A stretch of 64,000 nucleotides of DNA from Syntrophomonadaceae bacterium (GCA_003556225.1 PWRN01000027.1:10019-74018), one strand, 5' to 3'; shown: positions 26,607-47,154, counted from the stretch's first letter. Notes: generated by a model not told the origin, from the letters alone. Program-made: numbers and translations.

Positions 26607-28295
26607 TCATGTTCTTCCCTGGTCTTTTTCCAGTAACTTTTCGGCGTGGCGTTTTGTAATTTCGCTGCTCTCTTCGCCTCCCAGCATGCGGGCGATTTCT
26701 TCAATACGCATGTTTGTGTCCAGGTATTTCAGCCGGGTTACCGTGCGGTTGCTGCTGAATTCTTTGTAAATGTTATACTGGTGATGGGCTTTTCCGGCAA
26801 TATGAGGGCTGTGGGTGACACAAACCACCTGGTGATACGCGCTAAGATCCGCCAGTTTTTCAGCCACCCGCTGGATGGTTTTCCCCCCGATCCCGCTGTC
26901 GATTTCATCAAAGATCAATGTGGGAATATGATCCTGTTCAGCCAAAATGCTCTTCAAGGCCAGCATGACCCGGGCCATTTCCCCGGCAGAAATAATCCTG
27001 GACAGGGGTTTCGCTTCTTCACCCGGGTTTGCCGAAAACAAAAACTCCACGTTTTCTTTCCCCAGGCGATCGGGCGTTTCCTTCTGGCGGAAAGAAACCT
27101 GGAATTTTCCGCCCGCGATCCCCAGTTCCTGCAGCAATTCGATCACCAGCGATTCGATGGTCTCTGCGGCGTCTTTCCTTTTTGCAAAGAGAGCAGCAGC
27201 ACGAAGCTTCATCTGCTCCTCGATGGCTTGCCGTTCCCTCTCCAGGGCTGTTAAACGGGCTTCACTATTTTCCAGGTCTTCGATCTCCTTTTGACATCTT
27301 TCTTGAAAGGCCCGCACCTCCTGTACCGTTTGACCGTATTTTCTTTTTAAGTTTCGATAGATTTCCAGGCGGTCCTCCGTCTCCTGGCGTTCCTCCGCTG
27401 AAAAGTTGAGACGGTCCTGGTAACGGAAGAGCTCGTGACTTAACTCCGTCAATCCTGTAGAAGCTTCTTCCAGGACTTCCGCATACCCTTGAAACTCCGG
27501 ATCAAAGCGGCTGAGCATAAGCAGCTCCTCTTTTATGCGATTGATTCGATCCAAAACCGGTATTGTTTCAGACTCACCCTGGTAGAGTTCATGGTACGCC
27601 CGGTGAACCGCCGCGAGCAGTTTCTCCTGGTTATCCAGCAGGGAAAGCTTCTGCTGCAGGCGCTCTTCTTCCTGCGGATCCAGGGCGGCGGCTGCGATCT
27701 CATCCCGCTGGTAAGACAACAGCTCCAACTTACGGGCCCGTTCTTGGGGATTCTCTCCCAGCGCCTTTAACGCCTGCTGAATTTTCTGCCTTTTCTGGTA
27801 GAGAGACTGCCAATGTTCTCTCTCCTCTAGCAACGCCTCTCCGCCGAACTCATCCAGCAGGAGGAGATTTTGCTCCGCATGCAGCAAGGATTGATGGCTG
27901 TGCTGCCCGTGTAAGTCCACCAGGAAGCGTCCTATTTCCTTCAGGGTAGAGAGCGGCACCATGCGGGCATTCACCCGGCAAACGTTGCGCCCGCTTGCGG
28001 ATATCTCCCGGGAAAGAATCAAGTTCTCCGCGGGTTCAACCCCGATCTCCTGCAGTTTCATCGCCAGGGCCGGCTGGACCCCGGACCACGTAAAAGCCGC
28101 TTCGATCACGGCCTTGTCAAAACCGGAGCGAATCTGCTCGCTGGAAGCCCTTTCCCCCAAGAGCAGGCTGATCGCACCCACCACGATGGATTTCCCGGCC
28201 CCCGTTTCACCGGTTAAGACATTCAAACCCGGGTAGAGGTCAAAAGAAAGTTCTTCGATTAACGCGAAATTTTTCATCGATAAAAAAACCAGCAA
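26607..28295 (-). CDS. recN: DNA repair protein RecN
   Basis: Walker A GETGAGKSIVVGAISLLLG, long coiled-coil, C-terminal signature and Walker B. 562 aa. Confidence 0.9.
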   Translation of the reverse strand: MLVFLSMKNFALIEELSFDLYPGLNVLTGETGAGKSIVVGAISLLLGERASSEQIRSGFDKAVIEAAFTWSGVQPALAMKLQEIGVEPAENLILSREISASGRNVCRVNARMVPLSTLKEIGRFLVDLHGQHSHQSLLHAEQNLLLLDEFGGEALLEEREHWQSLYQKRQKIQQALKALGENPQERARKLELLSYQRDEIAAAALDPQEEERLQQKLSLLDNQEKLLAAVHRAYHELYQGESETIPVLDRINRIKEELLMLSRFDPEFQGYAEVLEEASTGLTELSHELFRYQDRLNFSAEERQETEDRLEIYRNLKRKYGQTVQEVRAFQERCQKEIEDLENSEARLTALERERQAIEEQMKLRAAALFAKRKDAAETIESLVIELLQELGIAGGKFQVSFRQKETPDRLGKENVEFLFSANPGEEAKPLSRIISAGEMARVMLALKSILAEQDHIPTLIFDEIDSGIGGKTIQRVAEKLADLSAYHQVVCVTHSPHIAGKAHHQYNIYKEFSSNRTVTRLKYLDTNMRIEEIARMLGGEESSEITKRHAEKLLEKDQGRT

Positions 28296-28394
28296 GGCAG
28301 TACCTCCATCAGCAACCTCGCAGCAGGGAAAGACATCATCCCTGCTTCCTTCGTCTCCAGGAACCGAAGGGACATCCCGTTCTTGTTCCTGCCG

Positions 28395-29256
28395 CTACGC
28401 ATCCATTAACTTGTCATGCAAAAGTTTATAAAAGTTGTTCCCGCGAAAATTCACCACCCGGGTCACGCAGCTCGCTTTTTGTACTTTGATCACATCCTGG
28501 TATTGCAAGGCAAACCCTTCCTGTCCGTCAAAAGTGAGGAAAACTTCTCCCTGTTTTGTCGCGACGTTAACGGTCACCAGGTCTTCCATGTGAACAACGA
28601 CCGAACGCTGGTATAAGAGGTGCGGGCAGATGGGGGTAATGACCAGGGCCTTTAACATGGGGTTTAAGATCGGGCCTCCCGCGGACAGGGAGTAACCTGT
28701 CGAACCGGTCGGACTGGCGATGATCATCCCATCGCCGGGGTAACACTCCAAAAAATCATCGTTTACGTATGTATTTAGCCTGATGATCCTGGAAAAAGGT
28801 CCCCGGGAGATAATCACATCGTTCAAAGAAATAAAGGACTTGTATGGCTGGCCGTGGCGGAACACGTCCGCCTGGAGCATCATCCGTTCACCCAGCAGGT
28901 AATCTCCCTGGATTAATAGTTCCAGGTAATGCTCCAGCTCCGGGACTTCAATCTCTGCCAAAAACCCTTTATGTCCCATGTTAACCCCCAGCATGGGAAG
29001 ATCCATGTGGGCCAGTTCCCTGGATACCCGCAAAAAAGTGCCATCGCCGCCCACGACAATGACAACGTCCACCATTGCAGGCCATTTCTCCAGTTGCTTG
29101 ATCGGTGAAGGTAGGTGCAGCAAGGGAGAGCTTTCCGGTACGATGTAAACGGGGACACCGTGTTTAGCAAAAAACGATTGAATGCTTGCAATGACCGCAT
29201 GGGTATTCTTTTTTTGCCAGTTGGGTATTACGCCAATGCCTTTAAACAGGTTCCAT
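28395..29256 (-). CDS. nadK: NAD kinase; the 5' end appears frameshifted (ATG at 29256 is out of frame with the main ORF; about 44 in-frame N-terminal codons lack any canonical start)
   Basis: GGDGT motif and NE/D-short motifs in the 28395-29123 ORF. The NadK-like N-terminus GIGVIPNWQKKNTHAVIASIQSFFAKHGVPVYIV continues in frame upstream to a TGA at 29256-29258, with no ATG/GTG/TTG in between. The overlapping ATG (29256-29254) followed by GAACCTGTT would join this frame if one base were removed from the TTT/AAA run near 29244. Confidence 0.7.
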
Positions 29257-29301: not shown

Positions 29302-30153
29302 TTATCGCCGGGGAGTCGCTTCCTCTTTCTTTGCAAAGTAGCGATGAGCTTCATCAACCACAGCCCTGACCCACGGCTCGATTCCCTGCTGGCCGGGGAA
29401 ACGGTCCTTTGCGTGATCGTGTTTGAAATAAGCGAAAAACTCGATATTGCCCCGGGGGCCCTGCACCGGGGAATACGTGAAGCCTTGCAGCCCGTACTGC
29501 AGTTGCGCCGCAGCAGCGGTGATCTTCATGAGTATTTCTCGATGCACCGCGGCGTTTTTTATCACACCTTTTTTCCCGACCTGGGCTTTTTGGGCCTCGA
29601 ACTGTGGTTTGACCAGGCAGATGACTTCTTTGACCGGGAAGCTGGCCACCGTGGGCAAAATGTGCCGCAGGGAGATAAAGGATACATCGATGAGTGCCAG
29701 GTCCGGCTTTCTATCCAGATGTTCCCGTTTCAAGTCCCGGGCATTAAATCGTTCCAGGTTTACAACGCGGGGATGGTTTCTCAGCGCCCAAGCCAGTTGG
29801 CCAAAACCTACATCCAGGGCATAGACTAGGGACGCGCCGTGTTGGAGAGCACAATCGGTAAACCCTCCCGTTGACGCCCCAATATCGAGAACGATTTTTC
29901 CTGCAAGTACAACCCGGAATTCACGCAGCGCCTTCTCAAGCTTCAGGCCGCCGCGGCTGACGAAGGGGTGCAGCGGCTTTTTCAGCTTGATTTCTGCAGA
30001 TACCGGGACCGAAAAGCCGGGTTTATCTTTCACGATACCGTCAACCAGCACATTGCCCGCCATGATTTCTGCCCGGGCCCGGTTTCTCGTGTCCACCAGC
30101 TTCATGCGCAAAAGCAGGTTATCCAGGCGATCTTTTTCCGTGCGCCCTTTCAT
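29302..30153 (-). CDS. tlyA: TlyA-family rRNA (cytidine-2'-O)-methyltransferase (S4 plus FtsJ-like domains)
   Basis: S4 domain (RLDNLLLRMKLVDTRNRARAEIMAGNVLVDG) followed by a SAM-MTase motif (VLDIGASTGGFTDCAL). Start at the internal Met avoids overlap with dxs. Confidence 0.8.
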   Translation of the reverse strand: MKGRTEKDRLDNLLLRMKLVDTRNRARAEIMAGNVLVDGIVKDKPGFSVPVSAEIKLKKPLHPFVSRGGLKLEKALREFRVVLAGKIVLDIGASTGGFTDCALQHGASLVYALDVGFGQLAWALRNHPRVVNLERFNARDLKREHLDRKPDLALIDVSFISLRHILPTVASFPVKEVICLVKPQFEAQKAQVGKKGVIKNAAVHREILMKITAAAAQLQYGLQGFTYSPVQGPRGNIEFFAYFKHDHAKDRFPGQQGIEPWVRAVVDEAHRYFAKKEEATPRR

Positions 30154-30163
30154 GGGAACTCCC

Positions 30164-32065
30164 TTAGACTCTCTCTCGAATTTTACAGAGTTTTTTTGCC
30201 TCCTGGACAATACTTCCGGCCGTAAGGCCAGCGCTCTCCAGGATTTGATCCCGGCTGCCATGACCGGTGCAGGGATCATCTACGCCCATCAGCTTCACCC
30301 GGAGATCCGCTAATCCTTTTTCCGCAAACAATTCCAGCACCGCGCTGCCAAAACCGCCCCGGGTAACTCCTTCTTCTACTGTCAGGATATTTTTACATTG
30401 TTTTGCCCGCCCGCAGATGAGTTCATCATCCAGGGGAACGATAAAACGCGGATTCAAGACACAGGCTTTTATGCCCGCTTTCAGAAGGGATTCATGGGCT
30501 TCCAGGGCGGCTTGCACCATGGAACCCATGGCCAGGATCAAGAGATCATGGCCTTCCTTGAGCACTTTGCCTCGGCCGTAAGCCAGCTCACAGGGTTCCG
30601 GGGGGAGAGGTTCTGCGGCCGGGCCCCGGGGGTAACGAATCGCCGAAGGCGAGTCCAGGGTCAAGGCCAGCTTCAACATTGCCGTTAATTCCGTACCGCT
30701 TCCAGGAGCCATCAGGGTGATACCCGGCTGATGACGTAAATAAGCCACGTCAAATAGACCGTTATGGGTCTCTCCATCTTCGCCCACAAGTCCTGCCCGA
30801 TCCACGGCGAAAAGCACCGGCAGCCCCTGCAAGCAGACATCATGCAGGATCTGGTCATACGCCCGCTGCAAAAAAGTACTGTAGATCGCCACGACCGGTT
30901 TAAAACCCTCGGCAGCCAGTCCCGCTGCCATGGTTACCGCGTTTTGCTCAGCGATACCCACGTCGATAAACCGCTGCGGCCATTTGGCAGCGAAAGATTC
31001 CAGCCCTGTTCCCGCAGTCATAGCCGCGGTCAGGGCGATGATGGAAGCGTCTTCTGCTGCCAGCTGGTGTAAGGTCGCACTGAATAGCTGGCTGTATGTA
31101 AAAGGATTGCGCTTGGGAGGGAACCTGCCGGTTTGCGGATCAAATTTTCCCACACCGTGAAATTTTTGGGGTGCTTCTTCTGCCGGTTTGTACCCTTTAC
31201 CCTTCGTTGTCACGGTATGGATTAATACCGGCCCCTTGATGGTCTTGGATTGGCGGAACAGTTCCTGGAGCTGCAGAATATTGTGGCCATTAATGGGTCC
31301 CAGGTAGGTAAACCCTAACTCTTCAAACAGGATGCCGGGAACAAGCAGATACTTGACACTGTCCTTGATGCGCTCGGCGGAACGAACCATGGTTTTACCG
31401 ATATGGGGAATGCGTCCCAGGACATGTTCCAGGTCCTCTTTAAGCCTGGAGTATTTCGGATCTGTGCGCAAGCGGGCCAGGTAAGAAGGCAGGCCGCCCA
31501 CGTTCTCGTTGATGGAAAGTTCGTTGTCGTTTAAGACGACGATCAGGTCGGTATTGGCAACACCGGCATAGTTAAGGGCTTCAAACGCCATTCCGCCGGT
31601 TAAGGCGCCGTCACCGATGACGGCAATCACGTGATTCGTTTGCTGTTTTAAATCTCTGGCCCGGGCGATCCCCAACGCGGCAGACAACGAGGTGCTGCTG
31701 TGCCCCACGTTGAAGACGTCGTAGATGCTTTCATCTCTCCTGGGGAAACCACAGATCCCGCCAAAACTGCGGATTTGTTTAAATTGTTCCCGGCGACCCG
31801 TGATGATTTTATGCGCATAAGACTGGTGTCCCACATCCCAGATCACCCGGTCTTCCGGGAGGTTAAACACACTGTAGAGGGCCAAAGTTAATTCGACCAC
31901 ACCAAGGCTTGAAGCCAGGTGCCCTCCCCGTTGAGCGATCACAGAAACAATTAACCGGCGTATTTCCGCGGCAATACGCTCCAGCTCTTGCACGCTGCAC
32001 TTTTTTAAATCTCCGGGTTCGTTGATGCTTTCCAGGAGCAAACTCAAAGCAATACCCACTTCCAC
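30164..32065 (-). CDS. dxs: 1-deoxy-D-xylulose-5-phosphate synthase
   Basis: TPP-binding GHSSTSLSAALGIA and GDGALTGGMAFEALN motifs plus a transketolase-like C-terminus. 633 aa. Confidence 0.9.
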   Translation of the reverse strand: MEVGIALSLLLESINEPGDLKKCSVQELERIAAEIRRLIVSVIAQRGGHLASSLGVVELTLALYSVFNLPEDRVIWDVGHQSYAHKIITGRREQFKQIRSFGGICGFPRRDESIYDVFNVGHSSTSLSAALGIARARDLKQQTNHVIAVIGDGALTGGMAFEALNYAGVANTDLIVVLNDNELSINENVGGLPSYLARLRTDPKYSRLKEDLEHVLGRIPHIGKTMVRSAERIKDSVKYLLVPGILFEELGFTYLGPINGHNILQLQELFRQSKTIKGPVLIHTVTTKGKGYKPAEEAPQKFHGVGKFDPQTGRFPPKRNPFTYSQLFSATLHQLAAEDASIIALTAAMTAGTGLESFAAKWPQRFIDVGIAEQNAVTMAAGLAAEGFKPVVAIYSTFLQRAYDQILHDVCLQGLPVLFAVDRAGLVGEDGETHNGLFDVAYLRHQPGITLMAPGSGTELTAMLKLALTLDSPSAIRYPRGPAAEPLPPEPCELAYGRGKVLKEGHDLLILAMGSMVQAALEAHESLLKAGIKACVLNPRFIVPLDDELICGRAKQCKNILTVEEGVTRGGFGSAVLELFAEKGLADLRVKLMGVDDPCTGHGSRDQILESAGLTAGSIVQEAKKLCKIRERV

Positions 32066-32071
32066 CAGGAA

Positions 32072-32707
32072 TTAACCGCGCCTTTGCTGCTGCGTGTTGG
32101 TTCCCCAAAAGGTAATTTTATCCATAGCTGTTAAAACCCGCGCCGCCGCAAAAACCACTTCCGTGGAATGATTGATCGCCAGGTACTTTCCCACGGCCTT
32201 TCCGCCTACGGTTATCGCGGCAATCATCCCCGCGAGAAAGATATTCAAGTACAGTTCGTTTATCCCCGGTCGGAGAAAGGCGAGGTTGATAATGATAAAG
32301 GCCCCGATGGTACCACTGATCACACCGCTGATATCCCCGATCACATCGTTACAAAAATTAGCCACTTTTTCAGCGTTTTTTACCAAATAGATTCCTTTTT
32401 TGGCGCCGTATATTTTTTTCGACGCCTTGGAGTGAAAGGGCATTTCATCCGCTGCCGCCACAGCCGTTCCAATGGTATCAAACAGGATTCCGATAAAAAT
32501 AATCATAAAAAGGATCAGGAAAGAAACAATGGTGGAATTGATCCCCTGCACGAGCAACCGGGTGATCAGAGCTAAACCAGAAGCCAAAAAAAAAGTCCAG
32601 ATACTGGCCTTAAGGATCCAGCGAACCGTTCTCTGCTTTCTCTGGGTTTGCTTGCTGTTGGCCAATACCCCCAACACCTCATAAGTAATAAAGGACTTAG
32701 GTGGCAA
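32072..32707 (-). CDS. oapA: DUF21 (CNNM-type) transmembrane-domain protein; candidate OLE-associated protein A
   Basis: About 200 aa with four predicted TM helices and no CBS/CorC domains, lying between the OLE-like noncoding interval and dxs. This matches the described oapA context. Confidence 0.55.
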   Translation of the reverse strand: MPPKSFITYEVLGVLANSKQTQRKQRTVRWILKASIWTFFLASGLALITRLLVQGINSTIVSFLILFMIIFIGILFDTIGTAVAAADEMPFHSKASKKIYGAKKGIYLVKNAEKVANFCNDVIGDISGVISGTIGAFIIINLAFLRPGINELYLNIFLAGMIAAITVGGKAVGKYLAINHSTEVVFAAARVLTAMDKITFWGTNTQQQRRG

Positions 32708-33346
32708 TCATGTGAGTAAACTTTACGGCTTCAGGTCCAGCAGGTTTTCCCAGATGCCTACCTCGCTGTTGCCAGCGGGCAGTTTCCTTTTAAAGACATC
32801 TCTGCCGTGTTGCCAGCGGCAGGGCTGGATTGCCACTAAGACCGCACTTTAATCCCCACATGATCTCCCACAGGTGGGAACAGTCTAGGAGTTTTCCTCG
32901 ATAGTGCATTTACGCTTCCTAGCCTCTTTTGCAGTCCTGGTTTCCTAAGGCAGGTTGCTGCCTTTCTCCCCGCAGGACCACTCAAGGCAGGCTACACTGT
33001 GCCCAGCGTCTGCCGCACACAGGTTCTAGCCTAAGCCGTAGCGCTTTCCCAGTAAGGCAATTAACCACGAACTTAGGTCTCCACGAAGGTAGGGTCAACG
33101 CCTACATGCCTTTGTAGATCGCCCCATCCTTCTTAACTCCCAGCACCAACCCCCGACTGGGCTTCGGCAGCCGGCACCAGGAACTTCATTGATGTGCCCT
33201 TTGGCGGATTTTTAGGCCCGCCTTCAGAAGCGTTTGCCTAACTAGAATACTGCACCACCTATGTCCCAAGTTAATTATAGCACACTGCCTTATTAATCTC
33301 AAGATTTTGCCAAATGCTTGCCCGTGATCATCGATCTGGCAATCCC
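32708..33346 (-). ncRNA. ole: candidate OLE (ornate large extremophilic) RNA; exact ends unknown
   Basis: 639-nt interval with no ORF of 60 aa or more in the gene direction, rich in local hairpins (e.g. AGGCAG-GTTG-CTGCCT, CTGCCG-N9-CGGCAG). It is flanked by ispA upstream and a DUF21 membrane-protein gene plus dxs downstream, within the nusB-folD-xseAB-ispA-[ole]-oapA-dxs-tlyA-nadK-recN arrangement that defines the OLE locus. RNase P, tmRNA and SRP core motifs were searched by eye and not found. Confidence 0.6.
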
Positions 33347-34273
33347 TCAGTAATCCCTGTAAAAAACAAACCCGGTGATTTCCTGCAGGGCCCGGGCCGC
33401 ATCTCCGTAGGGCGCCAGAAGCAACATGGCCTGGCGATAGAGCTCGTCTCGCTTATCCATGGTTTTTTGCAGGCCCTGCGCTGCTACATAGGTGGCCTTT
33501 TCGCGCTGTGCATCCATCCCGCCAGCTTTACCCATTTTGTCCCGATCTCCCTGCACATCAAGGAGATCATCCACCAGCTGAAACGCTTCACCCAACAGTG
33601 AGCCGAAGCGGCCCAGGCGGGAGAGGTCCTCCTCCCGGCCTCCTCCCAGCAGCACACCGGCTCGCAGGGAGGCCTCGATCAACGCGCCGGTCTTTTTCTG
33701 GTTAATATAAGCAATCACTTCCTGGCCAGGATTTTTCCCTTCAGATTCCATATCGACAACCTGGCCCCCGATCATGCCGTTTACACCGGAAGACCGGGCG
33801 ATTTCATAAATCACCCGCAGCCGGGTTTCAGGCGCGACGTGCAGTGCATAAGCAGGAGAAAAAGGATCAGGGCCCGCTGCAGGATTGCGGCTACTTAAAA
33901 TCTCAAATGCCAGGGTCAACAAGGCATCTCCGGCCAGGATGGCAATAGCTTCACCATAGACCTTGTGGCAGGTCGGCTGACCCCTCCTGTAGGCATCGTC
34001 GTCCATGGCGGGCAGATCGTCGTGGATCAAGGAATAAGTGTGAATAAACTCTACGGCACATGCCGCCGGCACGGCCTGGGAGGTGCTTTCCGTGAAGAGC
34101 TCCGCGGCAAGCAGGAGCAAGGCGGGGCGGATGCGCTTTCCTCCTGCAAAAACGCTGTAGCGCATGGCCTTATGAATGTTTTCCGGGTAACAGTCCTCTG
34201 CGGGCAGATACAGGTCCATGGCCTGCTCCACAAGCGCAACCTGCTTCTTGAAACGCTCCGGGTGATTTTTCAT
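33347..34273 (-). CDS. ispA: farnesyl diphosphate synthase (geranyltranstransferase)
   Basis: First and second Asp-rich motifs (LIHDDLPAMDDDAYRRG and QLVDDLLDV), 308 aa. Confidence 0.85.
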   Translation of the reverse strand: MKNHPERFKKQVALVEQAMDLYLPAEDCYPENIHKAMRYSVFAGGKRIRPALLLLAAELFTESTSQAVPAACAVEFIHTYSLIHDDLPAMDDDAYRRGQPTCHKVYGEAIAILAGDALLTLAFEILSSRNPAAGPDPFSPAYALHVAPETRLRVIYEIARSSGVNGMIGGQVVDMESEGKNPGQEVIAYINQKKTGALIEASLRAGVLLGGGREEDLSRLGRFGSLLGEAFQLVDDLLDVQGDRDKMGKAGGMDAQREKATYVAAQGLQKTMDKRDELYRQAMLLLAPYGDAARALQEITGFVFYRDY

Positions 34274-34593: not shown

Positions 34594-35811
34594 TTACTCG
34601 CCTGTTTTTTCAATTTCTTTGACCAGGCAGCGGGCCCGCCCATCGACAAAAATGACTTCTATTTCACGATTTTCTCTCAGAAGGCTGATGCCCTTGATCA
34701 GCTGCTGGTTTTCATCCACAACCAGGGCAAATCCCCGTCCCAAAACCCGCATCGGATCTAACGCCTGCAGGCGATCTTCCAGGTTTTTTACCGTGGCGCG
34801 CTTCAGCTGTAAATCGTATTTGATACCACGTGACATCCTCAACCATAGCTCATCAATCCTCTGCAGGTGGTAATAGATCTTATCTCGCAAATACCGGTGG
34901 AACCTGGCACTGGAAAGGTGCTTCAGCAGATGCAAGCGGCCTGCCAGGCTGTTTTTAACAGCGCGTTCCAAACGAACCTTCATGACCTGGACCTGTTTTT
35001 CCAGCTCATTCCTATCGGGAGCAATAAGCTCCGCCGCGGCAGTAGGCGTTGAAGCCCTGCAGTCGGCGACAAAATCTGCGATGGTAAAATCCGTTTCGTG
35101 ACCCACTGCTGAAATCACGGGAGTTCTTGCTTGAAAGATGGCCCGGGCAACGCCTTCATCATTAAAAGACCACAGCTCTTCCAGGGAACCACCCCCGCGG
35201 GTTATGACCAGCACATCAAATTCTCCCCGCCGGTCCATCACTTCCAGGGCCTGGACGATTTGTGCGGCAGAATCCTTTCCCTGGACAGCGACAGGATAGA
35301 TGGTCAACTGTATAAAAGGAAATCTCCGTCGCAGTGTTGTAATGAAATCTCGAACCGCTGCGCTGCCGGGCGAGGTGATTACGCCAACGTTCCCTGGAAT
35401 AGAGGGCAAGGGCTTTTTGTGCGCCGCATCAAAAAGCCCTTGTTCTTGCAATTTTTCTTTGAGCTGTTCAAAAGCCTGGTAGAGCGCCCCCTGTCCTTCG
35501 GGTTCCAGTTCCTCGATATAAAGTTGAAAATACCCGCCGCGTTCATAAATCGAGGTGCTGCCCCTGGCAATCACGCTCATGCCCTCGGCCGGTAAAAAGG
35601 TCAGATGTCTGTTCTTTTGTCTAAAAAAAACGGCCCGTAAGATCTGCTCCTCTTCTTTTAATGTAAAATACATATGCCCCGAGGGCTTGTGGTGTTTGAA
35701 ATTCGATATTTCACCCAGGACCTGGATGTCCTGTAAAAGGGCGTCTTGAAATAATATCTCTTTGAGGTAGCGGTTAACCTGGGATACACGGTAAATGGCA
35801 TCCTTTTTCAT
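34594..35811 (-). CDS. xseA: exodeoxyribonuclease VII large subunit
   Basis: N-terminal OB-fold (VSQVNRYLKEIL...GEISNFKHHKPSGHMYFTLKEE) and catalytic domain. 405 aa. Confidence 0.9.
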   Translation of the reverse strand: MKKDAIYRVSQVNRYLKEILFQDALLQDIQVLGEISNFKHHKPSGHMYFTLKEEEQILRAVFFRQKNRHLTFLPAEGMSVIARGSTSIYERGGYFQLYIEELEPEGQGALYQAFEQLKEKLQEQGLFDAAHKKPLPSIPGNVGVITSPGSAAVRDFITTLRRRFPFIQLTIYPVAVQGKDSAAQIVQALEVMDRRGEFDVLVITRGGGSLEELWSFNDEGVARAIFQARTPVISAVGHETDFTIADFVADCRASTPTAAAELIAPDRNELEKQVQVMKVRLERAVKNSLAGRLHLLKHLSSARFHRYLRDKIYYHLQRIDELWLRMSRGIKYDLQLKRATVKNLEDRLQALDPMRVLGRGFALVVDENQQLIKGISLLRENREIEVIFVDGRARCLVKEIEKTGE

Positions 35812-36650
35812 AACAGTTTACAAGCCTCGACCAAATTGTCTAAAAGCATTGCAATCGTTACGGGGCCAACGCCGCCCGTGATCGGGGTAATCCAACTGGC
35901 CTTTTCCTGCGCTTCACCGTGGTCCACGTCGCCCACCAGGCGAGTGCCAACCTGGCTCAGGCCGACGTCCACCACGATCGCGCCTTCTTTAACCATATCC
36001 CCTGTAATGGTATAGGGATGCCCCACAGCCACCACCAGGATGTCCGCTTGCTTGGTGAAGGCGGAAAGGTCCGGGGTCTGAGAATGGATGATGCTCACAG
36101 TTGCATTTCTTTCCAGCAGCATGAAGGCTACCGGTTTTCCTACAAGCTGGCTGCGCCCGACGACAACGGCCCTTTTGCCTTCAATCTTTTCACCGGTTGA
36201 GTCAATCAGCTTGATAATACCCTTGGCCACGAAAGGCGGCATATGGTGTTCCCCGATCAAGAAGTCTCCCATATTTATAAAATGCAGTCCTTCGACATCT
36301 TTGCGCGGTTCCACGATCTGTGAGATCAGGGTATGGTCCAGGTGAGGCGGTAGAGGATGGATGTTGATCCCGTGGACAAGATCGGTTTCATTGAGCCGTT
36401 CGATCAGGTGGACGATTTCTTCGTCTGTTGTGGTTTCGGGTAGGTTAAAAACCCGGCACTTGATCCCGAGTTGCCGGCACGTTCTTTCTTTCAATTGCGC
36501 AATATGCACCCGGCCGACGGGACTTTTCACGACAAGAATCGCCAAACCCGGTGTAATGCCTTTATCTGCATGCAAGGACTGGATATCTTGTTTGATTTTT
36601 TCCTTGACCTCGATTGCAGCCTGTTCTCCATTAATGATTTTTGCGGTCAT
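35808..36650 (-). CDS. FolD-family methylenetetrahydrofolate dehydrogenase/cyclohydrolase paralogue 1, divergent at conserved active-site motifs
   Basis: FolD fold with GRSQLVGKPVAFML, ADILVVAVG, GAIVVDVG and PITGGVGPVTIAML. Canonical motifs are altered: SxxYVxxK becomes VGRVHIAQLK, VQLPLP becomes NIHPLPP, DVDG becomes DVEG, and PCTP becomes PPFVAK. Confidence 0.7.
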   Translation of the reverse strand: MTAKIINGEQAAIEVKEKIKQDIQSLHADKGITPGLAILVVKSPVGRVHIAQLKERTCRQLGIKCRVFNLPETTTDEEIVHLIERLNETDLVHGINIHPLPPHLDHTLISQIVEPRKDVEGLHFINMGDFLIGEHHMPPFVAKGIIKLIDSTGEKIEGKRAVVVGRSQLVGKPVAFMLLERNATVSIIHSQTPDLSAFTKQADILVVAVGHPYTITGDMVKEGAIVVDVGLSQVGTRLVGDVDHGEAQEKASWITPITGGVGPVTIAMLLDNLVEACKLL

Positions 36651-36766
36651 TTTCGACCCCCTAGCGGCATTTCCAGCTTTGAGGCCAGCTGTGCAATCCC
36701 CTGGCCCCAAAGCTCACCACTTCACGGTTGAAATGCCTTATCTTCAAAGAACTCAACTTTTTTCGT

Positions 36767-37621
36767 TCAGCTTTCAAGATGTTTTTTAAACGCTTGCAGC
36801 GCATTCCACATCAACATGGTAATGGTGATGGGTCCTACGCCTCCAGGAACCGGCGATATCCAGCTCGCGACCTCCTTGGCCTGGTCAAAATCCACGTCAC
36901 CTACGAGCCTGTCCCCTACCTGGGTTACGCCTACATCGATCACGATGGCACCAGGTTTGATCCAGTCACCCTTGACCAACCCTGTCTGGCCCGCAGCAGC
37001 GACCAGGATATCCGCTTCGCGACAAATGTCCGCCAAGCCCACTGTTTTTGAATGACAGAGGGTTACGGAGGCATTTCTTCGCAGCAGAATCAGGGCCAGG
37101 GGCTTGCCCACGATGTTGCTGCGGCCAATCAAAACGGCGGACTTTCCATAGACCGGTTGCGTCGTATGTTCGATCATATGCAAAATACTGTGTGCCGTGC
37201 AGGCAATGAAGCCTTCTTCGTCGCTGAACAGCTTGCCCATATTAATGGGGTGCGTGCCGTCAATGTCTTTTTCAGGATCTATCGCGTTTAAGATGACGCG
37301 TTCGTCAAGGTGGTCCGGCAGGGGCAGCTGGACCATGAACCCATGGATTTTTTCGTCCTCGTTGAGTTCTTCTATCACCTCGAACAAATCATCCTGGGAG
37401 ATATCCTCAGGCAACCGCCGGACCTCTGAATAGAACCCCAGCTTTTTACTCTGCTTTTCTTTGTTGGTAACATATGACAGGGAAGCAGGATTTTGCCCGA
37501 CCAAGACAACGGCAAGACCGGGAGTCAGGCCCGTTTCATCATAGATGCGGCCCAACTCTTTCACAATTTCTGTGCGGACGCTTTCTGCCACTTCATCCCC
37601 TTTAATCAGGTTGGCGGGCAT
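36767..37621 (-). CDS. folD: bifunctional methylenetetrahydrofolate dehydrogenase/cyclohydrolase, paralogue 2
   Basis: Canonical PASLSYVTNKEK, MVQLPLP, DIDG, GRSNIVGKPLALIL and PVPGGVGPITITML motifs. The PCTP motif is replaced by ACTAHS. Confidence 0.8.
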   Translation of the reverse strand: MPANLIKGDEVAESVRTEIVKELGRIYDETGLTPGLAVVLVGQNPASLSYVTNKEKQSKKLGFYSEVRRLPEDISQDDLFEVIEELNEDEKIHGFMVQLPLPDHLDERVILNAIDPEKDIDGTHPINMGKLFSDEEGFIACTAHSILHMIEHTTQPVYGKSAVLIGRSNIVGKPLALILLRRNASVTLCHSKTVGLADICREADILVAAAGQTGLVKGDWIKPGAIVIDVGVTQVGDRLVGDVDFDQAKEVASWISPVPGGVGPITITMLMWNALQAFKKHLES

Positions 37622-37633
37622 CCAGCATACCTC

Positions 37634-38518
37634 CTAACTCTGGTTTAACCAGATCGCTGCCTCAACGGTATTATAAAGCAGCATGGTGACGGTCATCGGG
37701 CCTACTCCCCCCGGTACCGGGGTAATATAAGAAGCTTTTTCCGCAACGGGTTCATAATCAACGTCTCCAGCCAGGCGGAAACCGCTCTTTTTCGATGAAT
37801 CTGGAACACGATTAACACCGACGTCAATCACCACGGTGCCTTCGTTTACCATATCTGCCGTGATCGCATTTGGACGCCCCATGGCAGCCACCAAAATATC
37901 CGCTTGCTTGGTATAATAGCTGATGTCCTTGGCCCCGGTATGAACCACGGTAACGACGGCATTGGCCCCTTCTGCTTTTTGCATTAAAATCGCGGCTAAA
38001 GGTTTTCCAACAATATTGCTGCGTCCACAAACAACGACGTGTTTCCCGGCGGGATCATTCCCGGAGCGGACCAGGAGCTGCTTTACGCCGTGGGGCGTGC
38101 AGGGTAGGGGACAGGGCTCTCCCCGCAGCAATTTGCCCAGGTTAACGGGATGAAAACCGTCTACATCTTTTTCCGGTGAAATATAACCGATGACGCGGTC
38201 AACGCTGATGTGGTCCGGTAGGGGAAGCTGGACAAGAATACCACTGATTTTCGGGTCCTTGTTCAGTCCATCAACGGTCTTCAATACCTCTTCTTCTGTC
38301 GCATCTGCCGGCAGTCGAATGGTCTCTTCATACAAGCCGATCTCTTCGCATCCCTTTGCTTTGCTGGTGACATACGAAACCGAAGCGGGATCTTCACCCA
38401 CAAGCACGACACCCAGTCCGGGAACAATACCCTTCTCCTTCAATTCAGCGACTTTTTGCTTTAACTCTCCCCTGATTTCTTCTGCGACCTGTTTTCCGGA
38501 AATAACTTTTGCTGCCAT
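37634..38518 (-). CDS. folD: bifunctional methylenetetrahydrofolate dehydrogenase/cyclohydrolase, canonical copy
   Basis: All FolD hallmarks are present: PASVSYVTSKAK, LVQLPLP, DVDGFHPVNLG, PCTPHG, GRSNIVGKPLAAIL, PVPGGVGPMTVTML. Confidence 0.85.
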   Translation of the reverse strand: MAAKVISGKQVAEEIRGELKQKVAELKEKGIVPGLGVVLVGEDPASVSYVTSKAKGCEEIGLYEETIRLPADATEEEVLKTVDGLNKDPKISGILVQLPLPDHISVDRVIGYISPEKDVDGFHPVNLGKLLRGEPCPLPCTPHGVKQLLVRSGNDPAGKHVVVCGRSNIVGKPLAAILMQKAEGANAVVTVVHTGAKDISYYTKQADILVAAMGRPNAITADMVNEGTVVIDVGVNRVPDSSKKSGFRLAGDVDYEPVAEKASYITPVPGGVGPMTVTMLLYNTVEAAIWLNQS

Positions 38519-38547
38519 TGTTCAACCTCCTTGATTTTATAATATCC

Positions 38548-41500
38548 TTATGCTTGAAGACCTTTTTCCTCAAAATACTGCACGAACCATTTTTCTACGC
38601 TATCCACCCATTTCTCCGCCTGGAATGCAGCCACGTGATTAAGGGGTAAGCTGAAGGCAATCTTGCCTTTCGCCTGCGCAAAATCCTGGACGGTACAAAT
38701 GGGTCGCCCCCCCGGCCAGAAATAGCCTTCATCCGCGGCATCCAGGGTTGTGCCTTTAAAGATGGGCGCCAGGGTGCGGATTTCTTCCCAAACATCTTCC
38801 AGGGATTTGATTTTTTGTTGATAGCCCATGTATTCCATCAGCTTGATGAGTATTTCCCAGTTTTCTCGGCCCGTCAGCGGCTTTATGGCCGGATTGATTT
38901 TTTGGATCAAGCGCTCGCTGTTGGTGTAACTTCCCGTGGTTTCTGCAAAAGAAGCGGCCGGAAGAACGACATCGGCTTTTTTTGCAATCTCCGTCAAAAA
39001 AAGATCCTGCACGACCAGCAGTTCAGCCTGGGCCAGTTTGTCGATCCAGGCGCTCTTAATATCTTCGCCGAAAACGAAAACACCTTTAATGGTCTTCTTT
39101 TCCAGCCCTTCCAGGACCTGCTGCGTGTTTTTCCCTGCTGCCGGGGGAACCTCTGTCTTCCACTTATCGGAGAACTTGCTGCGGATCTCGGGATCGTCCG
39201 CCTGCTGGTAACCGGTTAAATAACGGGTCGAAACACCCATATCCAGCATACCCTGGCTGTTGCACCGCTCCCGCAGGAAGATAATGCCGCGGCGAGGTTT
39301 ACCAACTTTTCCAAGCAGGGTCACAAAGCCGGCCAACAGCTGCGCCGCTTCCGGGGCCAGGTTATTGCTCCCCATGACCAGCATGGGAGTCTTCGCGGCG
39401 GCATAGCGCTCCACCAGGTCGGCAATATCTTGTTCTGTTATCCCGCTGCCGGAGAGCAGCTCATCCATGGATTGCTTACTCAGCCAGGCCTCCAGGGTGG
39501 CAAAATTCTCTGTGTACTCTTGCACGAAGGCCTGGTCTACCAACCCTTTTTCTTTTAAATAAAGGAGCAGGGCGGCAAACAGGGAAACCGAAGCCTGGTC
39601 CTCGGCCTTTAAAAATCGGGCGGCGTACTTCTTCAACTTCACGTCTCGATTGTCGACCACCCATAATGTTGCCCCTTTCTCCACCGCTTGCTTGATTTTC
39701 AAGGCGGCGATGGGATAGTCAGGAAAATCCGCGCCCACGGTCAGGATAAAGTCCGCCGTGCCAATTTCTTCGTACGAGTTGGTCGATGCGTCCCAACCGA
39801 ACATTTCTGCCAGGGGATTTACAGGTTCCGCTGTGCTGTTAATGTTGTTTGTTCCCAGGGTTGCCCGGGCAAACTTCTGGATGAGATAGCTTTCTTCATT
39901 ACTGTGCCTGGGGCTGGAAAAAACAGCCAGGCTTTCTCCTCCAAAACGGGCCTTCAGGGATTTAAACTTCTTGGTAATATGCACCAGCGCATCTTCCCAG
40001 GAGGTTTCCCTTAGTTGTCCGTTTTCACGGATCAGGGGCTTGCGAATCCGCTCCGGGCTGTTGACGTATTCGAAACCAAACCGACCTCGTTTACAGAGTA
40101 ACCCCTGGTTGACCGGGCCTTCCCCGGGCACAACCCGGGCCAGCGTATCCCCGATCGTTTCAATGTTAATGCTGCATCCCACCCCGCAATATCCACAGGT
40201 GGAAGCCGTATGCTTCAGTTCCCAGGGGGCCGGCTTGGTGAAAGGCATCCGCTCAACCAGGGCTCCCGTGGGACAAACCGCCACGCACTGCCCGCACGTG
40301 ACACAACTGGTTTCTTCCAGGGGGAGGTCCAGCGAGGGGCTAACATAGGCATCAAATCCCCGGTTCACCAGCCCCAATGCTTCGGCACCGATCACCTCTG
40401 CACAGGTTCGCACACAAAGGCCGCAGAGGATGCATTTATTGGGTTCACGGAAAATGAAGGGATGTTCTTCATTTTCGTAATCGTGTTTTTCACCCATGAT
40501 TCTCTCGGGATGGGCATCGTATTCCGTCGCATAAGATCTCAGCCTGCATTCAAAAACATCCAGGCAGCCACACTCCAGGCAGCGCTCCCCGTCCTTGGAA
40601 GCGCTCTCCGGCGTTAATCCTTTCTCCACTTCCCGGAAATTTTTCACGCGGACTTCCGCGGGGACCAGGGGCATCTTGACTTTTTCCACGGTCTCCAGGT
40701 CAGCAAAATCTTCCTCGGTAAGCCCTTCCTTGATAATATTATAGTGCGTCTTGTAGGGCATGACCTCTCCGTTTAAGTAATGATTGACAACCTCTGCCGC
40801 TCGTTTTCCGGCGGCAATGGCATCAATAGCAATGGCCGGGCCGGTCACAGCATCACCGCCAGCGAAAACCCCGGGCACGTTGGTCAAGAACGTATCTTCC
40901 TGAATATCGATGGTATTCCATTTATTGGTTCCCACATCATCTTTGATCTTGTCAATCACAACGTCCTGGCCGATGGCAGCGATAATCGTGTCCACTTCCA
41001 CGGTAAAAAAGGAATCGGGAATGGGAACGGGGCGGCGCCTTCCGGATTCGTCGGGTTCCCCGAGTTCCATTCTCTGGCAGACCACCCGCTGCGCCTGGCC
41101 CTCGCCCTCAATCTGCACGGGGTTGGCCAGCAGGTGCAGTTCAACGCCTTCTTCATCGGCTTCGATGACTTCAATTTCCTGTGCAGGCATTTGTTCCCGG
41201 GCCCTGCGGTAGATCACCATCACCTGGTCAGCGCCGAGACGCTTGGCAGTGCGGGCGGCGTCCATGGCCGTGTTCCCGCCGCCAATAACTGCAACCTTGC
41301 TCCCCAGGGTCACTTCTTCATTTAACATCACGGCCCTTAAGAACTCGGTGCCGCCCTGCACGCCCGGCATATCCTCGCCCGGCACACCCATCCTGCGGCT
41401 GTTTTGAGCTCCAATGGCCAGGTAGACTGCGTCGTAACCGTTCTTGAAAAGGTAGTCGATGGTGAAATCTTCTCCCAGCTGCAGCCCTGTCTTGGCCTCC

Positions 41501-42273
41501 ACGCCCAGGTCCAGCACCAGCTGGATTTCCGCGCCCAAGACAGCCTTGGGGAGCCTGTACTCTGGAATACCATAGCGCAGCATCCCTCCCAGCTCGGGCA
41601 GGGCTTCAAAAATGGTCACCTGGTGCCCGCTGCGCCTCAAGAAATACGCCGCAGTAATGCCGGCAGGCCCTGACCCGACCACGGCGACTTTCTTGCCCGT
41701 TTCAGGAGCCACGGCAGGCAGGTAGGGTTCTTCACTGGCCAGGTCCAGGTCCCCGATCAACCGCTTCATGTAGCGAATGGCCACGGGTCCTTCCTTCAAG
41801 TTGCGCCGGCAGTCTTCCTCGCAGGGAGCAGGGCAAACCCGACCGATAGAAGCCGGAATGGGCATGAACTCCTTGACCAGGATCAAGGCATCCCGGTACT
41901 GCTTGTTGGCGACCAGGGCGGCATATCCCTGGGCATCACAGTTGGCGGGACAGGCCATGACACATGGAGCCCGACAGTCCCCGCTGTGATCAGAGAGAAT
42001 AAGTTCCAAGGCCAGCTTGCGGGCCTTGCGAATTTTTTCATTTTCCGTTTGAACCACCATGCCATCTGTTACTTTTGTTGCACAGGCTCTCAGCAACCTG
42101 GGCATCCCTTCGATCTCTACCAGGCACAGGCCGCAAGAAGCATAGACATCCGTATTGCCACTGAAACATAGCGTCGGAATATGAATACCGTGTTCCGTCG
42201 CGATATCCAATACGGTTTGGTCCGAAAGGCCGGCAAGTTCACGGCCATTGATATTTAGTCTGACTTGACTCAT
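38548..42273 (-). CDS. 1241-aa multidomain Fe-S flavoprotein: 2Fe-2S ferredoxin N-terminus, GltD/NfnB/SfrB-like NAD(P)H-FAD oxidoreductase, two [4Fe-4S] ferredoxin motifs, and a formate-dehydrogenase/NuoG-like molybdopterin-fold domain lacking the catalytic Cys/Sec
   Basis: NuoG/HndD-type N-terminus (NINGRE...HIPTLCF...CGLC). Dinucleotide folds VAVVGSGPAGITAAYFL and VAVIGGGNTAMDAA. CLECGC/CILCGLCVRTC/CVTCGQCVAVCPTG clusters. Fdh-type CGYCGVGCS...LCKRGRF motif. Where FdhF carries CARVCHGPS (Sec/Cys-His), this protein has STAEPVNPLAEM, and the C-terminal MopB_CT portion is short. Confidence 0.7.
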   Translation of the reverse strand: MSQVRLNINGRELAGLSDQTVLDIATEHGIHIPTLCFSGNTDVYASCGLCLVEIEGMPRLLRACATKVTDGMVVQTENEKIRKARKLALELILSDHSGDCRAPCVMACPANCDAQGYAALVANKQYRDALILVKEFMPIPASIGRVCPAPCEEDCRRNLKEGPVAIRYMKRLIGDLDLASEEPYLPAVAPETGKKVAVVGSGPAGITAAYFLRRSGHQVTIFEALPELGGMLRYGIPEYRLPKAVLGAEIQLVLDLGVEAKTGLQLGEDFTIDYLFKNGYDAVYLAIGAQNSRRMGVPGEDMPGVQGGTEFLRAVMLNEEVTLGSKVAVIGGGNTAMDAARTAKRLGADQVMVIYRRAREQMPAQEIEVIEADEEGVELHLLANPVQIEGEGQAQRVVCQRMELGEPDESGRRRPVPIPDSFFTVEVDTIIAAIGQDVVIDKIKDDVGTNKWNTIDIQEDTFLTNVPGVFAGGDAVTGPAIAIDAIAAGKRAAEVVNHYLNGEVMPYKTHYNIIKEGLTEEDFADLETVEKVKMPLVPAEVRVKNFREVEKGLTPESASKDGERCLECGCLDVFECRLRSYATEYDAHPERIMGEKHDYENEEHPFIFREPNKCILCGLCVRTCAEVIGAEALGLVNRGFDAYVSPSLDLPLEETSCVTCGQCVAVCPTGALVERMPFTKPAPWELKHTASTCGYCGVGCSINIETIGDTLARVVPGEGPVNQGLLCKRGRFGFEYVNSPERIRKPLIRENGQLRETSWEDALVHITKKFKSLKARFGGESLAVFSSPRHSNEESYLIQKFARATLGTNNINSTAEPVNPLAEMFGWDASTNSYEEIGTADFILTVGADFPDYPIAALKIKQAVEKGATLWVVDNRDVKLKKYAARFLKAEDQASVSLFAALLLYLKEKGLVDQAFVQEYTENFATLEAWLSKQSMDELLSGSGITEQDIADLVERYAAAKTPMLVMGSNNLAPEAAQLLAGFVTLLGKVGKPRRGIIFLRERCNSQGMLDMGVSTRYLTGYQQADDPEIRSKFSDKWKTEVPPAAGKNTQQVLEGLEKKTIKGVFVFGEDIKSAWIDKLAQAELLVVQDLFLTEIAKKADVVLPAASFAETTGSYTNSERLIQKINPAIKPLTGRENWEILIKLMEYMGYQQKIKSLEDVWEEIRTLAPIFKGTTLDAADEGYFWPGGRPICTVQDFAQAKGKIAFSLPLNHVAAFQAEKWVDSVEKWFVQYFEEKGLQA

Positions 42274-42331
42274 GCGCTTAACTCCACCCCTTTACTGTTA
42301 AATATGAACATGGTTTTGAGCACTTTTTTTA

Positions 42332-44110: not shown

Positions 44111-44133
44111 CTCCCAGGTCCCTTTGCTTTGGA

Positions 44134-44652
44134 TTATTCATTTTCATTTTGCTCATCTGTTTTTCCTCGAAAATCCTTCAATATCTTACGGGTCGACTTT
44201 GGTGTTAACATCGCATAGGTTTCACCATCAATTAACATCACCGGGGAAAGACTGCAGCAGCCAATACAGGCGACTTCTTCATAAGTAAACAATCCATCAC
44301 CGGTTGTTTCCCCGCCTTTAATACCCAGCTCATCCGTGATCGTATTACCCACCAGCTTTGCGCCGTTAACATGGCAGGCCGTGCCAACGCATAGCATGAT
44401 GGTGTGCTTCCCCTTGGGCTGCAGGCGAAACTGGGCATAAAAAGTGGCGATGCCGTAAATTTTTGCGGGTGACACCCCCAGCTGATCACCGAGATACCCG
44501 ATGCCTTCTTTAGGAACGTAATCAAGTGCTTCCTGGATGTCCTGGAGGATCGGAATGATCGCACTGGGATCGCCCTTGTACGTATCCAGGACGCGGTCAA
44601 TCGTTTCATAAGGTATGGCTTCGGACTCCAGGGATTTCTCTGTTGCGGCCAT
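44134..44652 (-). CDS. NuoE/HndA/HydC-like thioredoxin-fold [2Fe-2S] subunit
   Basis: CVGTACHVNGA...CIGCCSLSPVM cysteine pattern of NuoE-type 2Fe-2S proteins. About 170 aa. Confidence 0.8.
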   Translation of the reverse strand: MAATEKSLESEAIPYETIDRVLDTYKGDPSAIIPILQDIQEALDYVPKEGIGYLGDQLGVSPAKIYGIATFYAQFRLQPKGKHTIMLCVGTACHVNGAKLVGNTITDELGIKGGETTGDGLFTYEEVACIGCCSLSPVMLIDGETYAMLTPKSTRKILKDFRGKTDEQNENE

Positions 44653-44869
44653 AAAAACAACTCCTTTTCTAATATAGTTCAAAAAGATTGACGCATTGTT
44701 TCAAGTAAAATGCAAAAAAAGAACAAGCAGCGTGAAACCTGGACGAAACAACAGTACTGCTAATTGATCCTTCGAGATGGTAAAAATATTTTTAAATTTA
44801 TAATTTAAAATTTCGTCGCCAAGCGGAAATATCCTCTCTCCCCCTAAAATTCGCAATATTCTTTCTTGA

Positions 44870-45824: not shown

Positions 45825-46235
45825 CTAAAATTCTCCTTTTAGGTGTTTCCTGATCCTGTCGAGAACACCATTGACAAAACGACTCGCTTCTTCATCCTGG
45901 TAGATTTTGGCCAGTTCGATGGCTTCGTTAATGGATACCTTTTCCGGAATTTCCTCAACATACATGATCTCATAAATTCCGATGCGCAGGATATTGCGCA
46001 CCACGGGTGAGAGTCGATCCAGTTTCCAGTTGATTAAATGTTCCTTCAATATGCGGTCCAGTTCACCGCGGTGTTGTAAAATTCCCTGGAAAGAAGAACG
46101 AAAGTAGGCCGTTTCCTGGGCTCGTTCAGCTATTCCCTGCAGAAAATAGTTCTCCACGTCTTCCGGTTCATTTTCTCCAATCTCAATCATAAAGAGCGCT
46201 TTAAATAAATTTTCCCTGGCCCTCCTCCGCTTCAA
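45825..46235 (-). CDS. nusB: transcription antitermination factor NusB
   Basis: 136 aa with MKRRRARENLFKALF and the NusB helical pattern. Lies downstream of asp23/amaP/DUF2273 as in Bacillus yqhY-yqhZ. Confidence 0.85.
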   Translation of the reverse strand: MKRRRARENLFKALFMIEIGENEPEDVENYFLQGIAERAQETAYFRSSFQGILQHRGELDRILKEHLINWKLDRLSPVVRNILRIGIYEIMYVEEIPEKVSINEAIELAKIYQDEEASRFVNGVLDRIRKHLKGEF

Positions 46236-46507: not shown

Positions 46508-46522
46508 TGCGGTTTCACACCT

Positions 46523-47098: not shown

Positions 47099-47154
47099 AT
47101 TTAAAGCTAACCTCCTGGATAAGTCCAGGAGGTCAGCCGTGCCTTAAAATATTA

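Follow-up and report, generated by a model that had tools for sequence, protein, structure and literature searches.

A 64,000-nucleotide (nt) stretch of the genome of a Syntrophomonadaceae bacterium (GCA_003556225.1 PWRN01000027.1:10019-74018; hereafter the window, with positions counted from its first letter) contains a long interval between ispA and the gene for a small membrane protein, and the question raised by this locus is what the interval encodes. The initial annotation of the window, made from the sequence, had proposed that it holds the ornate large extremophilic (OLE) RNA next to oapA, the gene for the membrane partner of this RNA. We found that the interval is a full-length copy of this already known RNA class, as proposed. 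The best explanation of the locus overall, to which we assign a probability of roughly 95%, is that it represents the ole gene of a soda-lake anaerobic member of the Bacillota (Syntrophomonadaceae/Dethiobacteria-like), followed by oapA.

Identity, conservation, and predicted transcription of the OLE RNA

The Rfam 15 covariance models were run with cmscan over the whole 64-kb window. The OLE family, RF01071, was matched on the minus strand with 486 bits (E = 1.5e-139; gathering score, 50), the alignment spanning model positions 1 to 616 of 616 without truncation, and it was the sole Rfam family matched anywhere in the window. The Rfam search on this strand, put forward initially as a check, was therefore positive over the full model; nothing contradicts the assignment to OLE, and the class is detected trivially by a standard tool. 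What needed correction is the extent, as the RNA measures 590 nt by Rfam, or 562 nt from P1 to P1', rather than the structured interval of 640 nt first described (coordinates of all features are collected in Table 1).

The interval had also been called hairpin-rich, and its folding energy agrees with this description. The minimum free energy (MFE) of the 590-nt RNA was −251.9 kcal/mol, compared to −205.7 ± 6.9 kcal/mol for dinucleotide shuffles (z = −6.66), none of 100 shuffles being as good, and the MFE fold of the RNA alone recovered most of the family helices, P2 to P9 among them. P1 to P15 are all recognizable, and when the Rfam consensus pairs were carried onto the window sequence, 131 of 143 were canonical. 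The long-range closing helices lack annotation in the Rfam structure line; P1, P2, P3.1, and P3 were derived from the window sequence and examined for covariation in a MAFFT alignment of 72 distinct OLE sequences, comprising the window, genome loci found via OapA, and metagenome loci found via a conserved motif outside the tested helices. This analysis was limited to the P1-P3 helices, as the variable P7-P9 region aligns poorly without a structure-aware aligner. Across the four helices, 90.9% of cells were paired, compared to 32 to 48% when the 3' partner was slid by 1 to 3 columns; both sides of the pair had changed in 20 of 27 pairs, and the covariation score was 0.396 versus 0.07 to 0.12 in the slid controls. 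P2 was 99.7 to 100% paired, P3 was 92% paired with two-sided changes in 6 of its 7 pairs, and in P3.1 such changes were seen in all pairs (6/6). Together, P3 and P3.1 amount to 13 base pairs (bp). The P3/P3.1 helix has been proposed to span the membrane, with ~12 bp judged long enough by Lyon and Breaker (PMC12265935), and the 13 bp predicted here would fit that length.

Compared to two relatives, loci L003 and L001, the DNA of the RNA is 96.6% and 92.1% identical, respectively, whereas the flanking xseA, ispA, oapA, and dxs genes are 86 to 89% and 70 to 73% identical, indicating that this noncoding interval is under stronger constraint than its coding neighbors. As first noted, 32708-33346 contains no open reading frame (ORF) of 60 amino acids (aa) or more in the gene direction; the longest on the minus strand, 49 aa (32836-32985), lies inside the RNA. 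A hidden small protein-coding gene, with the RNA structure being incidental, would have to be sought in this ORF or in a 62-aa ORF on the opposite strand (32929-33117). Both, however, are located inside conserved RNA helices, substitutions among relatives are compensatory with respect to base pairing, and no gene was called at this place in any of four independent assemblies, so that such a gene is extremely improbable. Antisense to the RNA we also noticed a 46-aa ORF (32712-32852), which like the 62-aa ORF lies within conserved helices; both antisense ORFs are almost certainly spurious, though open to misannotation as genes.

The arrangement of an OLE RNA followed by oapA is shared by related organisms. 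Full-length OLE (436 to 488 bits) was found directly upstream of oapA in six of nine related oapA loci, and a seventh locus is cut by a contig end. Contigs that share 99.9% DNA identity with the window are found in JGI SL_9KL_010_SED, in two ENA assemblies, and in the metagenome-assembled genome (MAG) GCA_007120255.1. The nearest species representatives are Syntrophomonadaceae MAGs labeled CSSed, with 91% OapA identity, and more distant OapA homologues are labeled Dethiobacter or Dethiobacteria, in line with the anaerobic Firmicute predicted from the presence of OLE. We take the sample names SL_9KL_010_SED and CSSed to denote soda-lake sediment, a habitat that fits the profile of an extremophilic anaerobe. 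Two typical OLE-oapA contigs, L001 (CAZOOA010000007.1) and L005 (DATIKA010000321.1), are titled "uncultured Desulfovibrionaceae" and "Candidatus Limnocylindrales," respectively; these titles probably reflect mis-binning or mislabeling, and the same mislabeling was suspected by Fernando and Breaker for a few OLE hits outside Bacillota (PMC11332333).

A promoter of its own precedes the RNA, with TG placed in front of the −10 hexamer and a predicted transcription start at ~33266-33270, a few bases before P1. L001, L003, L004, and L007 share this promoter arrangement and its position, and L005 and L008 have a weaker version of it. No terminator-like site was detected on the minus strand in 31900-33600, i.e., from ispA to dxs. 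In Halalkalibacterium halodurans, ole lies inside a large operon, has in addition its own promoter, and accumulates as an RNA of ~630 nt (PMC9723947). Given this parallel and the lack of a terminator, read-through from OLE into oapA and dxs is likely, and by analogy the transcript may be processed to a discrete RNA. Because only 6 nt separate dxs from oapA, again with no terminator-like site, the two genes are probably co-transcribed.

The same layout could be taken to mean that the interval is a very long structured 5' leader controlling oapA-dxs expression in cis, since no terminator-like site separates the RNA from oapA, the Shine-Dalgarno sequence of oapA lies just 19 nt past P1, and dxs follows at such a short distance. 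Yet an ornate structure of 560 nt far exceeds any known cis-regulator, and all predicted protein-binding elements are kept in the window RNA, as described below; we therefore regard a cis-acting leader as very unlikely and favor a free-standing OLE RNA.

Predicted protein- and dimer-contact elements and the shortened P9 arm

The sequence elements that the literature links to function were nearly all found in the window RNA (PMC7936274, PMC9723947, PMC12286853, PMC12265935). In dimers solved by cryo-electron microscopy (cryo-EM), the A-rich P4 loops form bridge B1 (PMC12286853, PMC12265935) and the L5/L6 loops form the inter-molecular bridge B2 (PMC12286853); the determinants of B1 (L4, CUAAAAAU) and of B2 (GCCCA and AAAGGCAU) occupy conserved positions in the window, as judged at the level of sequence. 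OapB needs a GNRA tetraloop and a one-nucleotide bulge (PMC7936274), and P13 of the window carries both. We also found both strands of a putative OapC kink-turn (k-turn), CAUCAAUGAAG and GUGGAGA, whose location has been described together with the C-helix residues U84/C85 (PMC9723947). The sites of OapA are palindromes near P2 and P4a (PMC12265935), and we infer that the CUAG palindromes on either side of P3/P3.1 in the window may correspond to this OapA-binding class.

P9 is the exception in an otherwise ordinary locus. The tip of this arm is a CAAC tetraloop on a 7-bp stem, and the P9.2/P9.3 extension is lacking, such that 40 consensus positions of distal P9 are represented by 8 nt in the cmscan alignment. 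P9 length, taken as the distance between the conserved P9 flanks, was measurable in 93 OLE loci, including metagenome loci from L014-L133, and its distribution was bimodal: 12 loci (~8 distinct sequences) had a P9 of 56 to 67 nt, and the rest measured 91 to 152 nt, most of them falling within 91 to 109 nt and chiefly within 95 to 104 nt. The short group includes the window, its near-identical copies, L001, and L003; by the same flank measure, P9 is 60 nt in L004 and 58 nt in L007, and it appears short in the alignment of L005. The short class takes in every Syntrophomonadaceae-like relative of the window. Among 72 distinct long P9 stems, 50 display a GGCC palindrome at the folded tip loop, with GCGC, CGCG, GAUC, AGCU, etc., in others, and a palindromic tip was found in none of the short P9 stems.

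In the cryo-EM dimers, the L9.3 palindrome constitutes the third inter-molecular bridge, and it covaries as a palindrome (PMC12286853). A short P9 without a palindromic tip therefore points to a clade without the L9.3 contact, in which dimerization, if any, must use the other two contacts. The L9.3 kissing loop is not among the Rfam requirements for OLE, and short-P9 loci score 459 to 488 bits compared to 436 bits for the long-P9 locus L008. It is possible, albeit doubtful, that the window clade represents a natural form of OLE devoid of bridge B3 and otherwise complete, with P7, P8, and the OapA, OapB, and OapC elements intact. If true, the P9 arch would be dispensable for core function, or a different oligomeric state would occur in these organisms, and the 562-nt core could suit structural work as a smaller construct. 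A clade-wide short P9 in an otherwise full-length OLE bears on which dimer contacts are essential; it is a slight variation within a known class rather than a new kind of RNA.

Might the short arm instead mark a decaying, non-functional OLE relic? The truncated P9, the change of one near-invariant base, and the 12 non-canonical pairs among the 143 of the consensus could all be read in this way, but the RNA matches the model over its full length at 486 bits and is more closely conserved with its relatives than the flanking genes are, neither the promoter nor oapA is damaged and both are conserved, and the short P9 itself has been retained with compensatory changes in several relatives. We consider a relic practically out of the question and hold to a full-length OLE RNA with a shortened arm.

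One related contig showed an unusual pattern. L010 (ENA ERZ27301262 k141_2365287) is 100% identical to the window over ~4.1 kb, a stretch that runs from the folD genes past ispA to ~130 nt into OLE; beyond a breakpoint at ~33100-33150, identity drops abruptly to 50 to 70% in what remains of OLE as well as in oapA (184 aa) and dxs. Colinearity with the window is retained in three independent assemblies (L011-L013), so that L010 is probably a chimera produced during assembly, with its junction in the conserved 5' part of OLE, and recombination is the less likely origin; that its different P9 represents strain variation was ruled out by the switch from 100% to ~50-70% identity inside OLE. Synteny work around ole calls for caution in this respect, as chimeric metagenome contigs can cross over in the 5' part of OLE, where conservation is high.

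The oapA gene, its product, and the surrounding genes

The gene directly downstream of OLE is oapA, with P1 ending at 32699 and oapA beginning at 32665. A product of 211 aa had been given initially, starting from a TTG at 32707; this codon falls inside the 3' strand of P1, and the 211-aa ORF was rejected, as homologues and three gene calls back 197 aa. The 197-aa product is called independently in three assemblies (L011-L013), and the same basic N-terminal start is shared by 31 homologues, so TTG 32665 is most likely the true start. OapA is a protein of ~21 kDa, and its published hallmarks are four transmembrane (TM) helices, a DxxxD motif, and a basic N terminus (PMC12265935, PMC11332333). 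Four hydrophobic segments were evident by Kyte-Doolittle analysis, with peaks at residues ~21-39, 44-62, 112-130, and 140-158, and the AlphaFold2 model contains long helices that match them. DVIGD at residues 107-111 represents the DxxxD motif, D107 and D111 being invariant in 32 homologues, and five K/R residues lie within residues 1-16, conserved among homologues, a candidate for the cluster of positive charges on the cytoplasmic face that is characteristic of OapA. The gene is oapA, its product displaying the published hallmarks and being expected, as an OapA, to bind OLE RNA and to be needed for its localization at the membrane.

The initial annotation had further described this product as a four-TM DUF21 protein without CBS domains. 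The four helices are present, and neither CBS nor CorC/HlyC domains were found in the Pfam scan of the protein, which ends at residue 197. The DUF21 label stands in part. Neither Pfam nor NCBIfam assigned OapA to a family at default thresholds; when the threshold was relaxed, PF01595 (CNNM, formerly DUF21) alone was matched, and its score of 17.1 bits (E = 0.0046) fell short of the 28.4-bit cutoff, which speaks against Pfam membership. Weak kinship is nonetheless supported, as PF01595 was matched at E ≤ 0.01 by 22 of 32 OapA family members (best E = 4.8e-08), some homologues are named CNNM-domain proteins in database entries, and the top six matches of a Foldseek search of the OapA model against the PDB were MtCorB (7M1U, 7M1T) and the CorC TM domain (7CFG, 7CFF). 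7M1U was also the top match for H. halodurans OapA according to Fernando and Breaker, and OapA has been called "weakly homologous" to the CNNM (DUF21) domain (PMC11332333). OapA of the window is probably a distant CNNM-like protein, as published, and no Pfam-level DUF21 member. When compared by sequence with PDB chains, either as a single sequence or as a 32-sequence profile, OapA gave nothing meaningful, and no solved OapA was recognizable.

Known OLE RNAs reside in a cluster of housekeeping genes that includes ispA, dxs, xseA/B, folD, nusB, tlyA, recN, and yqhY/Asp23 (PMC12265935). By Pfam and NCBIfam, the order on the minus strand of the window is efp, Asp23/YqhY, Asp23-like, DUF2273, nusB, TsaD-like, NuoE-like, NuoF-like, the GltD/FdhA-like fusion, three folD genes, xseA, xseB, ispA, OLE, oapA, dxs, tlyA, nadK, and a RecN-like gene whose product is a structural maintenance of chromosomes (SMC) ATPase. 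The synteny claimed at the outset, with nusB, folD, xseA, xseB, and ispA upstream and oapA, dxs, tlyA, nadK, and a RecN-like gene downstream, was confirmed, as was a redox/folD block between nusB and xseA inside the extended OLE neighborhood; nusB and folD, although both members of the cluster, are not adjacent but are separated by ~7.3 kb of redox genes.

Table 1. Features of the OLE-oapA locus and neighboring genes in the window
Feature	Position	Strand	Details
OLE RNA gene	32685..33274	-	cmscan RF01071, 590 nt
OLE structured core, P1 to P1'	32699-33260	-	562 nt
Sigma-70-type promoter, extended -10	33274..33302	-	TTGAGA-17 nt-TGcTATAAT; 11 of 12 consensus positions
Domain 1 (P3 to P9)	32913..33232	-	Closed by P3 and P3.1
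P3	33226-33232 with 32913-32920	-	7 bp
P3.1	33235-33240 with 32902-32908	-	6 bp
P2, 5' strand with CUAG palindrome	33242..33252	-	Pairs with 32881-32888 (CUAGACUG)
Second CUAG	~32920-32923	-	Adjoins P3 3' strand
P4 hairpin	33203..33222	-	A-rich loop CUAAAAAU; aligns to conserved Rfam positions
J4a/5 strand of OapC k-turn	33184..33194	-	CAUCAAUGAAG; at base of P5
P5 and P6 hairpins	33085..33183	-	Loops GCCCA and AAAGGCAU, complementary GCC/GGC
Short P9, CAAC tetraloop	32922..32988	-	67 nt; tip 32950-32961
P13 hairpin	32802..32822	-	GCAA (GNRA) tetraloop, single bulged G; CUGCC-G-CUG[GCAA]CACGGCAG
P14.1	32760-32780	-	Also closed by GCAA (sequence)
oapA Shine-Dalgarno GAGGTG	32675..32680	-	19 nt past P1 end, 9 nt before TTG
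oapA	32072..32665	-	197 aa, TTG start 32665
dxs	30164..32065	-	TIGR00204, 800 bits; starts 6 nt past oapA stop
ispA (farnesyl diphosphate synthase)	33347..34273	-	NF045485, 327 bits, PF00348; upstream of OLE
GltD/FdhA-like fusion	38548-42273	-	1241 aa; Pfam/NCBIfam
nusB	45825-46235	-	Pfam/NCBIfam
Asp23/YqhY protein	47155-47550	-	Pfam/NCBIfam

Several features of these surroundings were recorded in addition. The block between nusB and xseA (35808-45823, minus strand) encodes TsaD-like and NuoE/NuoF-like proteins, a GltD/FdhA fusion of formate-dehydrogenase type, and three tandem FolD proteins, and it looks like an inserted formate/one-carbon (Wood-Ljungdahl-related) module. The three folD paralogues are mutually only 42 to 47% identical, which argues for old paralogues rather than a recent duplication. 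Just upstream of nusB (46283-47550, minus strand) lie genes for Asp23/YqhY, a second Asp23-like protein, and a small DUF2273 membrane protein; yqhY belongs to the genes that accompany ole most frequently (PMC12265935). On the downstream side, the longest ORF of tlyA (29302-30279, minus strand, 325 aa) shares 116 nt with the end of dxs, with Pfam domains starting from residue 51, and the true tlyA start is probably further downstream. The argR gene adjoins recN in some OLE clusters. Here, the gap between nadK and recN is 99 nt (28295-28395), leaving no argR/ahrC gene in that place. More distantly, at 9518-12277 (minus strand), the window encodes a 919-aa protein in which IspH/LytB is fused to four S1 RNA-binding domains, a fusion type known in Firmicutes; like ispA and dxs, IspH/LytB belongs to the isoprenoid pathway. 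No MpfA-type CNNM-CBS gene was found in the window, which fits the published anticorrelation and carries no inference for the whole genome.

Proposed mechanism and comparison with known systems

The mechanism that we envisage for this locus is carried over from H. halodurans and two Clostridium species, to which the sequence alone adds nothing new. The RNA would be transcribed from the dedicated promoter, and probably by read-through from ispA as well, to accumulate as a stable species of ~600 nt. In a dimer, two copies may be joined by their A-rich P4 loops and by the complementarity of L5 and L6. Dimers of OapA would bind the CUAG palindromes flanking the 13-bp P3/P3.1 helix, by which the RNA would be held at, and possibly through, the membrane; P13 would supply the GNRA tetraloop and the bulge to which OapB binds, and the k-turn at the base of P5 would be the site of OapC. 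A particle assembled in this way would help the cell to withstand stresses such as cold, alcohols, poor carbon sources, and an excess of Mg2+, and it may modulate a divalent-cation transport activity of OapA related to that of CNNM/CorB.

Several observations weigh against this reading, or against parts of it. The mechanistic part rests on hypotheses from the literature. The palindromic L9.3 kissing loop that forms bridge B3 was not found in the 67-nt P9 of the window with its CAAC tip. In a k-turn strand, position 33190 is A where 69 of 72 OLE sequences have G (CAUC[G]AUGAAG), and this G is kept in the closest relatives, L003 and L001; judging from the published description of the k-turn, the A appears to fall on the first nucleotide of the 3-nt bulge of the k-turn, which is usually tolerant of change. 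Among the window ORFs scanned, a few short ones lying outside the scan, neither oapB (KOW/SBB) nor oapC (YbxF/L7Ae) was found; both genes are normally located elsewhere in the genome. Finally, the AlphaFold2 model of OapA is of moderate confidence (pLDDT, the predicted local distance difference test, of 62.8), and its Foldseek matches have weak E values of 0.09 to 0.65, despite probabilities of 0.91 to 1.0 and TM-scores of 0.38 to 0.57.

With respect to its significance, the locus is a further OLE/oapA pair in a class of which thousands of members are known, here from an uncultured haloalkaline anaerobe, and in this well-studied and curated family its value lies mainly in correct annotation.

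Compared to full-length OLE RNAs, i.e., H. halodurans ole and the Clostridium acetobutylicum and Clostridium botulinum RNAs studied by cryo-EM, the window RNA is alike over the whole model, from P1 to P15. It has an A-rich L4, complementary L5/L6 loops, two k-turn strands, GNRA loops in P13 and P14.1, the P13 bulge, and CUAG palindromes, and it occupies the same site upstream of oapA in the ispA...dxs cluster behind the same dedicated promoter. It differs in a P9 that is ~30 to 40 nt shorter and devoid of the palindromic L9.3 (B3), in the A that replaces a near-invariant G at 33190, and in its host, an uncultured anaerobe of soda-lake sediment known here from its sequence.

A shortened P9 is also a trait of the OLE variant 1 RNAs of Fernando and Breaker (2024), mostly from the TANB77 clade, in which the P7, P8, and P9 stems are all short, P13 often lacks the OapB site at its end, and scores range from 310 to 390 bits (PMC11332333). 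By contrast, P7 and P8 of the window RNA align to nearly all consensus positions, its OapB site is intact, and it scores 486 bits, a comparison to be read with the caveat that the Rfam model used here differs from theirs. Assignment to variant 1 was ruled out, since only P9 is short in the window RNA.

As for the protein, OapA of the window resembles H. halodurans OapA (BH2780-type), as known from its published description, in its size of ~200 aa, four TM helices, DxxxD motif, and basic N-terminal face, and both are encoded directly downstream of ole and share a weak CNNM-like similarity. The Mg2+ transporters of the CNNM group, MpfA/CorB/CorC (7M1U, 7M1T, 7CFG, 7CFF), provide the best fold matches and the weak PF01595 similarity, whereas OapA falls below the Pfam threshold, contains no CBS pair and no CorC/HlyC domain, has four TM helices instead of the three of CNNM, and carries a DxxxD motif absent from CNNM domains. 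OapA and MpfA/CorB/CorC are probably distant homologues with a related role in ion transport, as proposed previously (PMC11332333).

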